Of a DNA stretch of 64,000 nt, positions 8,667-29,773 are shown piece by piece (within the stretch, counting starts at the first letter, position 1; every line of letters begins with the position of its first letter). Origin of the DNA: Escherichia coli. Lineage in GTDB: Bacteria; Pseudomonadota; Gammaproteobacteria; Enterobacterales; Enterobacteriaceae. Position numbers and translations under genes: made by a program. The notes below the pieces were generated by a model. It was given only the letters and a program-made list of their open reading frames with translations, made no database searches and was not told the origin of the DNA. The stretch is taken from assembly GCF_003018235.1 (NCBI RefSeq), contig NZ_CP027437.1; one strand, 5' to 3'.

Positions 8667-9682
8667 GATTTCGCCTCCAGATACGTTGTTAACCAGTCAG
8701 GAATGCGTGACTCCAGCCACATTTGTGGATGAAGTAATGTACCGCCAATAAAGCCAACATGACCGCCATGTTCAGTCAGCTGATACTCCACCTGCGGGGG
8801 GAGACTTTCCGGTTTCGGGATCACCTGATGATCCATAAACGGATCGTCTTTGGCGTGAATAATCAGCGTCGGTTTGGCTATCCGATTGAGCATCGGCATG
8901 GCGCTACACTGACGATAATAGTCGATAGCGTCAGCGTAGCCGTGAATTCTGGCGGTGATGAGATCGTCAAATTCACGGATGCGACGTACCGATTTTAACT
9001 GCGCGAGATTAATCGGCAGCGTTCCGGGGTAGGCAGCCAGCTTGCGTGCGGCATTGGCTTTTAACAGGTTCAGCAAGTAACGCTGATAGACGCGGGAAAA
9101 GCCCTTTTCCATATGATAGCTACAGGCTTCCAGCATAAACGGCGCAGAGACAATCACCGCCGCATCAATCGGGAGATCATTGCCTTCTTTTGCCAGCAAA
9201 CAGGCCAGCATATTACCGCCGAGCGAATAGCCGACGGCAGCCGTTGGCGCATGACCAGACTCGCGTTGCAGCCAGCGTAAAAACCAACTGGCGTCTTCGG
9301 TTTCGCCCGAATGGTAAATGCGGTGCATACGGTTTGGTTCACCGCTGCATCCGCGAAAATGCATCACCACGCCCAGCCAGCCGCGCTTTTGCGCCGCCTC
9401 AACCAGACCGTGGGCGTAAGGGCTATTGAGACTGCCTTCCAGCCCGTGAAATACCACTAAACGCGGTTTATGACGCGCCTGTGCAGGGTCTTCACTCCAC
9501 GCGAGATCGACAAAATCGCCGTCGGGCAACTCCAGTCGCTGCCAGTGCGGGGTGAATTTCACCTTGCGACGAAACAGACGCGGCAGCATGGTTTGTAGAT
9601 GACAATTGCTAAAGCCGCGCATAGGGGTGAATTCAGCACTGCTGCTGAATTCATTGGCATCGGTCGTCGTTATCTTCGCCAT
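8660..9682 (-). CDS. yheT: Alpha/beta hydrolase YheT
   Basis: 340-aa ORF with GYSLGG nucleophile-elbow motif. Confidence 0.85.
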
Positions 9683-11601
9683 CAGTTGCTTTGGCCTTCC
9701 AGCAGCATCTGCTCAAGCTGCTCCTGGGCTTCCAGCCACGCCATTTCGCACTCTTCCAGGCCGGATTTGGCGCTGGCTTGCTGTTGCAGGCAGGCGGTCA
9801 ACTCCGCTTTACGGCTTTGATCGTACAGTTCGCTGTCGCCGAGTTTCTCTTCCGCCTGCGCCAGCTGTGCGTTCAGCTTCTCCATCTCTTTTTCCAGACG
9901 GGCAATCTCTTTACGCAGTGGCTGGGTTTGCGCACGCAGCTCCGCTTCCCGACGTTTCTGATCTTTACGTGCCTGGGCGCTGTTCGCGTTCTCTTTCTCT
10001 TTTGGCGCTTCGTCGGTCTGGTTTTCCTGCTTTTGTACGTCGCTCAACCACTGTTGATAATCTTCCAGATCGCCGTCGAACGGTTCGACTTTATGATCGT
10101 GAACCAGGTAGAGATCGTCAGTGGTGGAACGCAGCAAATGACGGTCGTGCGAGACGACAACCAGCGCGCCTTCGAACTCGATTAATGCTTCAGTCAGTGC
10201 CTGACGCATGTCGAGGTCAAGGTGGTTAGTCGGTTCGTCGAGCAGCAGCAGATTCGGACGCTGCCAGACAATTAATGCCAGCACCAGGCGGGCTTTTTCC
10301 CCACCGGAGAAGCGGCGCGTTTCTTCCGTCACTTTATCGCCCTGGAAACCAAAGCCGCCGAGGTAGTCACGCAGTTTTTGCTCCAGTTCCTGCGGCGCTA
10401 AACGTGCCAGATGTTGAATAGGCGATTCGTCGGCGCGCAGGTATTCAAGTTGATGCTGGGCGAAGTAGCCGAGCTTGATCCCTTTCGCCAGACCAATTTC
10501 ACCGCTGACTGGCGCAAGTTCACCGGCTAACAGTTTGATTAATGTCGATTTACCCGCGCCGTTGCGGCCTAGCAGACCAATGCGCGAGCCGGGGACCAGA
10601 TTCAGTTTAATCGAGTCGAGAATAATGCGATCACCATAGCCTGCGCTGACCTTTTCCATCTTCAGTAACGGATTTGGCAGGCTTTCCGGCGCGCGGAAGC
10701 TAAAGCGGAACGGGTTGTCGACGTGCGCGGGGGCAATCAGCTCCATACGCTCAAGCATCTTAATGCGGCTCTGGGCCTGCTTCGCTTTGGTGGCTTTGGC
10801 ACGGAAACGGTCGATATAACTTTGCAGATGCGCCACGCGTTCCTGCTGGCTTTCGTACATCGCTTGTTGCTGCGCCAGACGGGTGGCGCGCTGAACTTCA
10901 AACGAACTGTAGTTGCCGGTGTACTCGAACATGCTTTGTTGTTCGATATGAATAATTTTATCAACGATCGGATCGAGGAAGTCGCGGTCATGAGAGATCA
11001 GGATCAGCGTGCCCTGATAGCTCTTCAGCCATTTTTCCAGCCAGATAACGGCATCGAGATCGAGGTGGTTAGTCGGTTCGTCGAGCAGCAGCAAGTCTGA
11101 ACGGCAAATCAGCGCCTGGGCAAGGTTAAGACGCATACGCCAGCCACCAGAGAAATCACTTACCGGGCGCTCCAGTTGTTCATTGCTGAAACCGAGGCCG
11201 TGCAGCAGGCTGGCGGCACGGGAGCGAATACTCCATGCGTCAATAGCATCCAGCTTGCCATGAATGGTCGCAATGGCGTGCCCGTCGTTACGTTCGTTGG
11301 CGTCGTGTAGCTGCGCTTCCAGTTGACGATATTCACGGTCGCCGTCAATGACATATTCCAGCGCCGCTTGCGGTAACGCCGGCGTTTCCTGATTCACCCA
11401 CGCCAGTTGCCAGCTTCCCGGAAAGGTGTAGCTGCCGCCGTCGGCGCTGATTTCATTTTTCAGCAATGCCAGCAGGGTAGATTTACCACAGCCGTTTTTA
11501 CCCACCAGGCCGACTTTCTGCCCGGGGTTGATGGTGGCGGTGGCATTATCCAGCAGGACGCGCACGCCGCGACGAATTTGTAACGAGGAGAAAACAATCA
11601 T
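9682..11601 (-). CDS. yheS: ABC-F family ATPase (two ABC domains) YheS
   Basis: 639-aa ORF with two Walker A motifs (GKNGCGKST, GRNGAGKST) and two signature regions. Confidence 0.9.
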   Translation of the reverse strand: MIVFSSLQIRRGVRVLLDNATATINPGQKVGLVGKNGCGKSTLLALLKNEISADGGSYTFPGSWQLAWVNQETPALPQAALEYVIDGDREYRQLEAQLHDANERNDGHAIATIHGKLDAIDAWSIRSRAASLLHGLGFSNEQLERPVSDFSGGWRMRLNLAQALICRSDLLLLDEPTNHLDLDAVIWLEKWLKSYQGTLILISHDRDFLDPIVDKIIHIEQQSMFEYTGNYSSFEVQRATRLAQQQAMYESQQERVAHLQSYIDRFRAKATKAKQAQSRIKMLERMELIAPAHVDNPFRFSFRAPESLPNPLLKMEKVSAGYGDRIILDSIKLNLVPGSRIGLLGRNGAGKSTLIKLLAGELAPVSGEIGLAKGIKLGYFAQHQLEYLRADESPIQHLARLAPQELEQKLRDYLGGFGFQGDKVTEETRRFSGGEKARLVLALIVWQRPNLLLLDEPTNHLDLDMRQALTEALIEFEGALVVVSHDRHLLRSTTDDLYLVHDHKVEPFDGDLEDYQQWLSDVQKQENQTDEAPKEKENANSAQARKDQKRREAELRAQTQPLRKEIARLEKEMEKLNAQLAQAEEKLGDSELYDQSRKAELTACLQQQASAKSGLEECEMAWLEAQEQLEQMLLEGQSN

Positions 11602-11728
11602 AAGGCGCCGTATGTTCAGACTATGTTAACTTATCATTATGATAATGTAGTGTATGGGCGAGCTGCCGCACCGGGCGCAATGGTAGCCCAAAACAGCGAC
11701 TATACACAAAAACCATACCGGGAGGGGG

Positions 11729-12283
11729 ATGATGTCTCAGCCAGCGAAAGTTTTGCTGCTGTATGCCCATCCGGAATCTCAGGACTCGGTGGCAAACCGG
11801 GTACTGCTTAAACCGGCCACGCAGCTCAGCAATGTTACCGTGCACGACCTTTACGCGCACTATCCCGATTTTTTTATTGATATCCCCCGTGAGCAGGCAT
11901 TACTGCGCGAGCACGAGGTGATTGTCTTTCAGCATCCTCTTTATACCTATAGCTGCCCGGCGCTACTGAAAGAGTGGCTGGACCGGGTATTAAGCCGTGG
12001 TTTTGCCAGCGGGCCGGGAGGAAACCAACTGGCGGGAAAGTACTGGCGTAGCGTGATTACCACCGGCGAGCCGGAAAGTGCTTACCGTTATGACGCCTTG
12101 AATCGCTACCCGATGAGCGATGTTCTGCGCCCCTTTGAACTGGCGGCGGGCATGTGCCGGATGCATTGGTTGAGTCCCATCATTATTTACTGGGCGAGAC
12201 GGCAAAGCGCACAGGAGCTGGCGAGTCACGCCAGAGCCTACGGTGACTGGCTGGCAAATCCGCTGTCTCCAGGAGGCCGCTGA
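11729..12283 (+). CDS. kefG: Glutathione-regulated K+ efflux system ancillary protein KefG
   Basis: 184-aa ORF; stop overlaps the kefB start. Confidence 0.9.
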
Positions 12284-25779: not shown

Positions 25780-25908
25780 TCAATGGGCTACTTTTGGTAG
25801 CCCATTATTTTTATTCATATTTCTATTCTTTGCTTAAAAAAGAGTCTTTCCGTAATTGAAATAAGAACTATTTTCATTTATTTTTGAAGAAAGTATACGG
25901 GAGTCTCT

Positions 25909-27357: not shown

Positions 27358-29773
<2,416 letters not shown>

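Follow-up and report, generated by a model that had tools for sequence, protein, structure and literature searches.

The perfect palindrome between yheS and kefG of Escherichia coli is reasonably likely to be the -10 and start region of one or both of the divergent promoters, a region covered by phosphorylated ArcA (ArcA-P) on flanking repeats, with the symmetry arising as a by-product. Read directly from the window (the whole stretch of DNA that was analyzed, 64 kb), TTATCATTATGATAA is an inverted repeat of the 7-1-7 form, TTATCAT-T-ATGATAA, just as the original prediction had it, and the predicted distances of 30 bp to the yheS ATG and 84 bp to kefG agree with the two open reading frames (Table 1). 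The claimed divergent promoter setting also holds, in that the palindrome lies inside a control region common to two divergent operons, which are annotated in K-12 as yheT-yheS and kefG-kefB-yheV. In NC_000913.3, the palindrome occupies 3481245-3481259, between kefG (3480607-3481161, minus strand) and yheS (3481289-3483202, plus strand). The kefG reading frame opens with ATGATG (11729-11734), of which the first ATG (184 aa) is the start in the MG1655 reference annotation and the second (11732) is the start chosen by RefSeq PGAP in another K-12 record.

Table 1. Features of the yheS/kefG intergenic region, in window coordinates; identities are means over pairs of the 15 Enterobacteriaceae genera aligned
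Feature	Position	Strand	Mean pairwise identity	Remarks
yheS ORF	9682-11601	minus		639 aa counting the start
Conserved block, probable yheS 5' leader	11602-11630	minus		overlaps ArcA box
ArcA box	11613-11629	plus	0.95	direct repeats TGTTCA (11613-11618) and TGTTAA (11624-11629), 11 bp centre to centre
Palindrome	11631-11645		94%	
Candidate yheS -10, CATAAT	11636-11641	minus		putative
Second candidate yheS -10, TATCAT	11644-11639	minus		overlaps CATAAT; with TATGAT forms symmetric TAnnnTA
Candidate kefG -10, TATGAT	11638-11643	plus		-35 TTCAGA at 11615-11620, 17-bp spacer
Alternative kefG extended -10, TG-n-TAATGT	11640-11648	plus		putative
Possible third ArcA repeat	11646-11651	plus	0.75	putative; TGTAGT (TGTAAT in K-12), 22 bp from second repeat
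GC-rich variable segment, probable 5' end of kefG leader	11652-11672	plus	0.55	21 bp adjoining; hairpin in many genera
kefG ORF	start 11729	plus		followed by kefB at 12283

The standing of the 15-mer rests on its sequence conservation and not on its symmetry. The region upstream of yheS was collected from 80 species, and the divergent kefG-yheS order was found to be kept throughout the Enterobacterales and in the Vibrionaceae. In a family-level alignment of 15 Enterobacteriaceae genera, a 50-bp block (11599-11648) is near-invariant, and 11 of the 15 palindrome columns within it do not vary at all. The contrast between 94% identity at the palindrome and 55% in the adjoining 21 bp implies that the sequence of the 15-mer is under constraint, and the conservation in other enterobacteria for which the original prediction had called as a check is thus present. 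Comparison within E. coli adds little at such low divergence: a 211-bp query over the intergenic region found matches in 5424 of 5426 complete genomes, which places the window on the E. coli chromosome, and the 32 bp containing the palindrome were unchanged in 5414 of the 5426. MG1655 differs from the window at 2 of the 211 bases (11606 and 11650), neither of them within the palindrome.

The dyad symmetry tells another story. Position 11633 is A in only 4 of the 15 genera, all of them belonging to Escherichia, Citrobacter, or Phytobacter, and is G in the other 11, which makes the left arm TTGTCAT, while every one of the 15 has T at its pairing partner, 11643. Among metagenomes, a scan that used the conserved flank as its anchor yielded 112 loci and 32 variants, the commonest of which, TTGTCATTATGATAA, carries one arm mismatch (about 67 loci); the perfect form accounted for 21 loci, and the compensating right arm ATGACAA was seen in 0 of 112. 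Outside the Enterobacteriaceae, the right arm is lost while the yheS-side flank, the genes, and the ArcA box remain. Preservation of both half-sites and of their symmetry in relatives, the mark of a palindromic operator, was therefore not what we found. Judging from these alignments, the dyad symmetry is not under constraint; the perfect-palindrome state is specific to Escherichia, Citrobacter, and Phytobacter and is probably not a selected operator. The proposal that the palindrome could be an operator for one or both genes thus stands as regards its location in a divergent control region and lacks support as regards the symmetry. That the symmetry is perfect is probably incidental, the by-product of -10-like sequences that face both ways.

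As to what constrains the 15-mer, we propose that it forms the AT-rich core of a promoter region common to kefGB-yheV on the plus strand and to yheS and its downstream genes on the minus strand. Its arms would supply -10-like hexamers, TATGAT or TG-n-TAATGT for kefG and CATAAT or TATCAT for yheS, and RNA polymerase would most likely melt the palindrome DNA and start within about 10 bp on either side. TTCAGA-17-TATGAT is the only sigma-70-like site called in 11450-11850 and has the top plus-strand matrix score. The alternative extended -10 retains its TG and its hexamer A2 and T6 in all 15 genera, and it survives where TATGAT or GATAAT is damaged (TGGTAATGT, TGATACTGT). In the other direction, the -35 elements are poor by matrix scoring. 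The aligned yheS-facing hexamer reads CATAAT, CACAAT, TACAAT, or TATAAT in the Enterobacteriaceae, Cedecea, Mangrovibacter, and Yersinia nurmii, and Serratia has TAGAAT 3 bp further out, at the place of the E. coli TATCAT. This persistence of a yheS-facing -10-like hexamer in families that have otherwise altered the 15-mer supports the promoter reading; against it, the family-level conservation of the 15-mer would also fit a protein that tolerates one imperfect half-site.

Further -10-like hexamers lie within the ArcA box (TGTTAAATT; on the plus strand TG-T-TAAATT, on the minus strand TAACAT) and are conserved order-wide. Because offset profiling across species gives so many overlapping -10-like hexamers, sequence alone cannot assign the promoters, and no start site for kefG or yheS was found in the supplements of Kim 2012, the SMRT-Cappable-seq study, Warman 2026 NAR, or the Shigella M90T start-site paper. 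We only infer which hexamers are the true -10 elements, where the start positions lie, that there is a third ArcA repeat, and that yheS is affected at all.

The second part of the proposal concerns ArcA. The box adjoining the palindrome, TGTTCAGACTATGTTAA, departs from TGTTAA-N5-TGTTAA at 1 of the 12 specified bases and is the sole match in the 64-kb window with at most one mismatch; two TGTTAA-like repeats 11 bp apart are found here and not in the palindrome. It corresponds to 3481261-3481277 in NC_000913.3, spans the bases 12-28 bp from the yheS start codon, and is maintained throughout the Enterobacterales, with the second repeat present in essentially all of 50 sequences from the order and the first present at 5/6 or better in about half. 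The text of Park et al. 2013 (PMC3798270) places kefGB-yheV among the operons directly repressed by ArcA, where direct means a ChIP binding region together with an expression change in an arcA deletion (for kefGB-yheV, de-repression). In the same text, an ArcA box consists of a pair of direct repeats spaced 11 bp apart, to which most sites add further ones at 11 or 22 bp; the footprints cover 30-60 bp or more and reach across to a distal repeat. Most of the sites that repress lie over the footprint of RNA polymerase, and promoter occlusion was the mechanism concluded. By its sequence, the box at 11613-11629 is probably the ArcA operator of kefGB-yheV, and given its position ArcA-P could block yheS too, a gene that the main text of Park et al. 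2013 (PMC3798270) does not mention as an ArcA target.

The palindrome is flanked by these two strong repeats and by what may be a weaker third one, and because it lies between them, ArcA-P would be expected to cover it under anaerobic conditions. Such occlusion would shut off kefGB-yheV and possibly yheS as well. It has been reported that KefGB is essentially constitutive and is not induced by methylglyoxal (PMC3739934), which agrees with a simple promoter under a single anaerobic repressor. More distant relatives do not help to apportion the box between the two operons: no ArcA box was found upstream of yheS in the Vibrionaceae, which have kefG, or in the Pasteurellaceae or Aeromonas, which lack it, and since the box is missing with and without kefG, the comparison is uninformative on which gene it serves.

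It could be argued that the conservation of the 15-mer comes mainly from ArcA-P protomers that contact it between the repeats in one extended site, the promoter role being secondary. The geometry invites this idea, since the palindrome fills the 15 bp that separate the second repeat from the distal weaker element, and the repeats at 11624 and 11646 would stand two helical turns apart around it; the multi-repeat sites and long bridging footprints in the text of Park et al. 2013 (PMC3798270) point the same way. The TGT of the possible third repeat is invariant in 15 of 15 genera, Phytobacter having TGTTAG there, and a GTTAA- or GGTAAC-like element persists at 21-22 bp across families: Serratia and Cedecea carry GTTAAC, while Mangrovibacter and Yersinia nurmii carry GGTAAC. 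However, CATTAT (core ATTA), which stands at 11 bp from the second repeat, is a poor repeat, and other families vary freely in the intervening 15 bp while the flanking repeats stay, from which it follows that ArcA does not demand the sequence of the 15-mer. We regard this extended site as an unlikely source of the conservation, although the idea overlaps the promoter reading and does not exclude it.

An operator for some other dimeric factor, one that reads TT(A/G)TCAT-N-ATGATAA and co-regulates both operons, would account for a conserved 15-mer over the likely -10 and start region. That region is the classic position for a repressor, and many operators tolerate one imperfect half-site. A weak further point in favor is that the kefG/yheS spacer is absent from the RNA-polymerase-only "constitutive promoters" of Shimada et al. 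2014, as given in its main text; the same absence counts against the promoter reading. Yet there is no co-variation between the arms and the perfect form is in the minority, the right arm disappears beyond the Enterobacteriaceae although both genes and the ArcA box persist, and sites resembling the 15-mer elsewhere in the window (3 with at most 3 mismatches, versus 2.2 expected) do not exceed chance. Nor is a regulator gene adjacent, the flanks being yheS and kefG-kefB, and the literature searched names no such factor for kefG or yheS. We consider an operator of this kind distinctly unlikely.

That the palindrome arose by chance, has no function, and is conserved by hitch-hiking on neighboring elements is improbable. 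The window holds 4 perfect 7-1-7 palindromes versus 3.9 expected (64000/4^7), and 26 perfect palindromes with 7-bp arms when spacers of 0-3 are allowed, so that as a palindrome 11631-11645 is not beyond chance. As an RNA element it was rejected: it folds at just -2.9 and -2.4 kcal/mol (as RNA/single-stranded DNA), a marginal hairpin, and Rfam has no family near threshold for the region. Its 11 invariant columns, however, are not neutral, given how far the adjoining 21 bp have diverged. Another of the 7-1-7 palindromes in the window, CTCCTGATTCAGGAG at 27819-27833, lies 6 bp before an open reading frame that starts at 27839, and its right arm also provides a Shine-Dalgarno-like GGAG.

The original prediction had seen GATAAT-like hexamers reminiscent of Fur-box half-sites, and the corresponding hypothesis is that iron-loaded Fur bound to these hexamers represses yheS, kefG, or both. 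To our knowledge, neither yheS nor kefG takes part in iron metabolism. The resemblance is real as far as it goes, in that the palindrome is AT-rich and contains GATAAT and TGATAAT, and its best match to the Fur consensus GATAATGATAATCATTATC, 12/19, is in the top 0.15% of window positions, with adjacent frames at 6-bp steps giving 10, 12, 10, and 10. In all, 93 window positions reach at least 12/19. For a symmetrized Fur matrix, we used the best sites of 12 MG1655 promoters whose regulation by Fur is established (fepA-fes, fepD-entS, fepB-entC, fhuA, fiu, fhuE, tonB, cirA, exbB, ryhB, fhuF, and fecI), the leave-one-out scores of which ranged from 7.9 to 21.2 bits with a median of 15.5. The best site at yheS/kefG scored 8.3 bits, which overlaps the weakest real sites (fhuE, 7.9; exbB, 8.6) and is also reached or exceeded at 25 window positions, which lie mostly in coding DNA. 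The cutoff for Fur in Chen et al. 2007 was 10 bits, within an information-theory model of their own that differs from the matrix used here. The top matrix score in the window, 11.9 bits, falls at 12074-12092 within the kefG coding sequence. The next is 11.2 bits at 25857-25875 (TGAAATAAGAACTATTTTC), which from its map position may be the promoter region of bfd-bfr, known to be a target of Fur.

The arrangement of the heptamers also fails to fit Fur. They are everted with a 3-bp gap (cTTATCA-TTA-TGATAAT), whereas a Fur box is the inverted TGATAAT-N-ATTATCA, and in place of three or more phased GATAAT hexamers there is one exact copy (11641-11646) whose neighbors match at 4/6 and 3/6. The names yheS, kefG, kefB, b3351, and b3352 do not occur in 605,126 characters of the supplements to the nine-strain Fur ChIP-exo study (PMC10164565), a text that may exclude the binding-site dataset. 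Of the two observations that had been named as counting jointly against the prediction, a poor matrix score and a lack of conservation, the first was made and the second was not. The Fur assignment is not supported; the site is at most a very weak one, and Fur control of either gene through it seems very improbable. We know of no fit to the motifs of FNR, CRP, Zur, NikR, IclR, GntR, LexA, CpxR, PhoP, or LysR-type (T-N11-A) regulators beyond AT-richness.

The promoter reading also bears on the two leaders. If yheS starts near 11627-11632, its entire leader would be the order-wide conserved block next to the palindrome, and if kefG starts near 11650-11656, the variable GC-rich hairpin would stand at the 5' end of its leader. 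The yheS-side block is 92-95% identical within the family, and genera as far from Escherichia as Serratia, Pectobacterium, and Photorhabdus still have CAT-AAGGCGCCGTATGTTCAGAcTATGTTAAaTT. No Shine-Dalgarno sequence is recognizable before the yheS ATG (ACGGCGCCTT-ATG). Read in the yheS orientation, the block carries the motif AACATA(G/C)-N4-AACATAC, which is partly the ArcA box, and a GCGCC(T) adjoining the start codon.

On the kefG side, Pectobacterium, Serratia, Dickeya, Brenneria, Acerihabitans, and Photorhabdus cinerea have a T-rich run after the hairpin, which gives it the look of an intrinsic terminator or an attenuator within the leader of kefG; the E. coli segment has no T-run. RNAalifold did not recover the hairpin from the alignment used and returned only an invariant 5-pair stem, GGGC...GCCC, without co-variation, and the kefG leader of E. 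coli shows no greater folding stability than shuffled sequences (z = -0.33). Between the hairpin and the kefG ribosome-binding site, a further stretch at 11676-11695, GCAATGGTAGCCCAAAAC (in other families GCATGGTA(G/A)C(C/G)GAAAA), is conserved order-wide, and for it too RNAalifold gives nothing beyond the invariant stem.

YheS is a ribosome-rescue ABC-F factor, and KefGB is a potassium-efflux system. If the 15-mer were a genuine operator of an uncharacterized dimeric regulator, or one -10 common to both promoters at which polymerase must commit to a direction, expression of the one would be coupled to that of the other, layered on ArcA control; we hold this stronger claim to be a long shot. 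A shared -10, if real, would make the locus a clean natural example of a bidirectional promoter controlled by a direct-repeat repressor, one that could show whether ArcA silences one or both directions. Otherwise, the importance of these results lies mostly in annotation: a tempting but unsupported Fur assignment is removed, and the 50-bp block is singled out as the core from which the two divergent operons would be controlled. That ArcA regulates kefGB-yheV has been published before (PMC3798270). Full-text searches of the literature found no account of the palindrome sequence, which is an uncharacterized instance of a well-known type of element.

Set beside known systems, the palindrome shares with a Fur box its base composition and hexamers, and it differs in that its heptamers face outward and its score falls at the low end of what known sites give. 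It also resembles the bidirectional promoters of Warman et al. (10.1101/2020.01.31.928960; PMC12825309), which have a symmetric TAnnnTA -10 and starts 18 bp apart. TATGATA at 11638-11644 supplies the plus strand with TATGAT and the minus strand with TATCAT, both of which match TATAAT at 5/6, A2 and T6 being base-paired, and starts predicted near 11650 and 11632 would also be about 18 bp apart and would yield two divergent mRNAs. That class, however, is defined by mapped divergent starts (7-25 bp apart), whereas this locus is known from its sequence, in which other hexamers could be the real -10. ArcA reads direct repeats and the palindrome is inverted, so that it is not itself the box. As in ArcA-repressed sigma-70 promoters, the box here overlaps the predicted kefG -35 element and spacer, in agreement with the promoter occlusion concluded for ArcA (PMC3798270).
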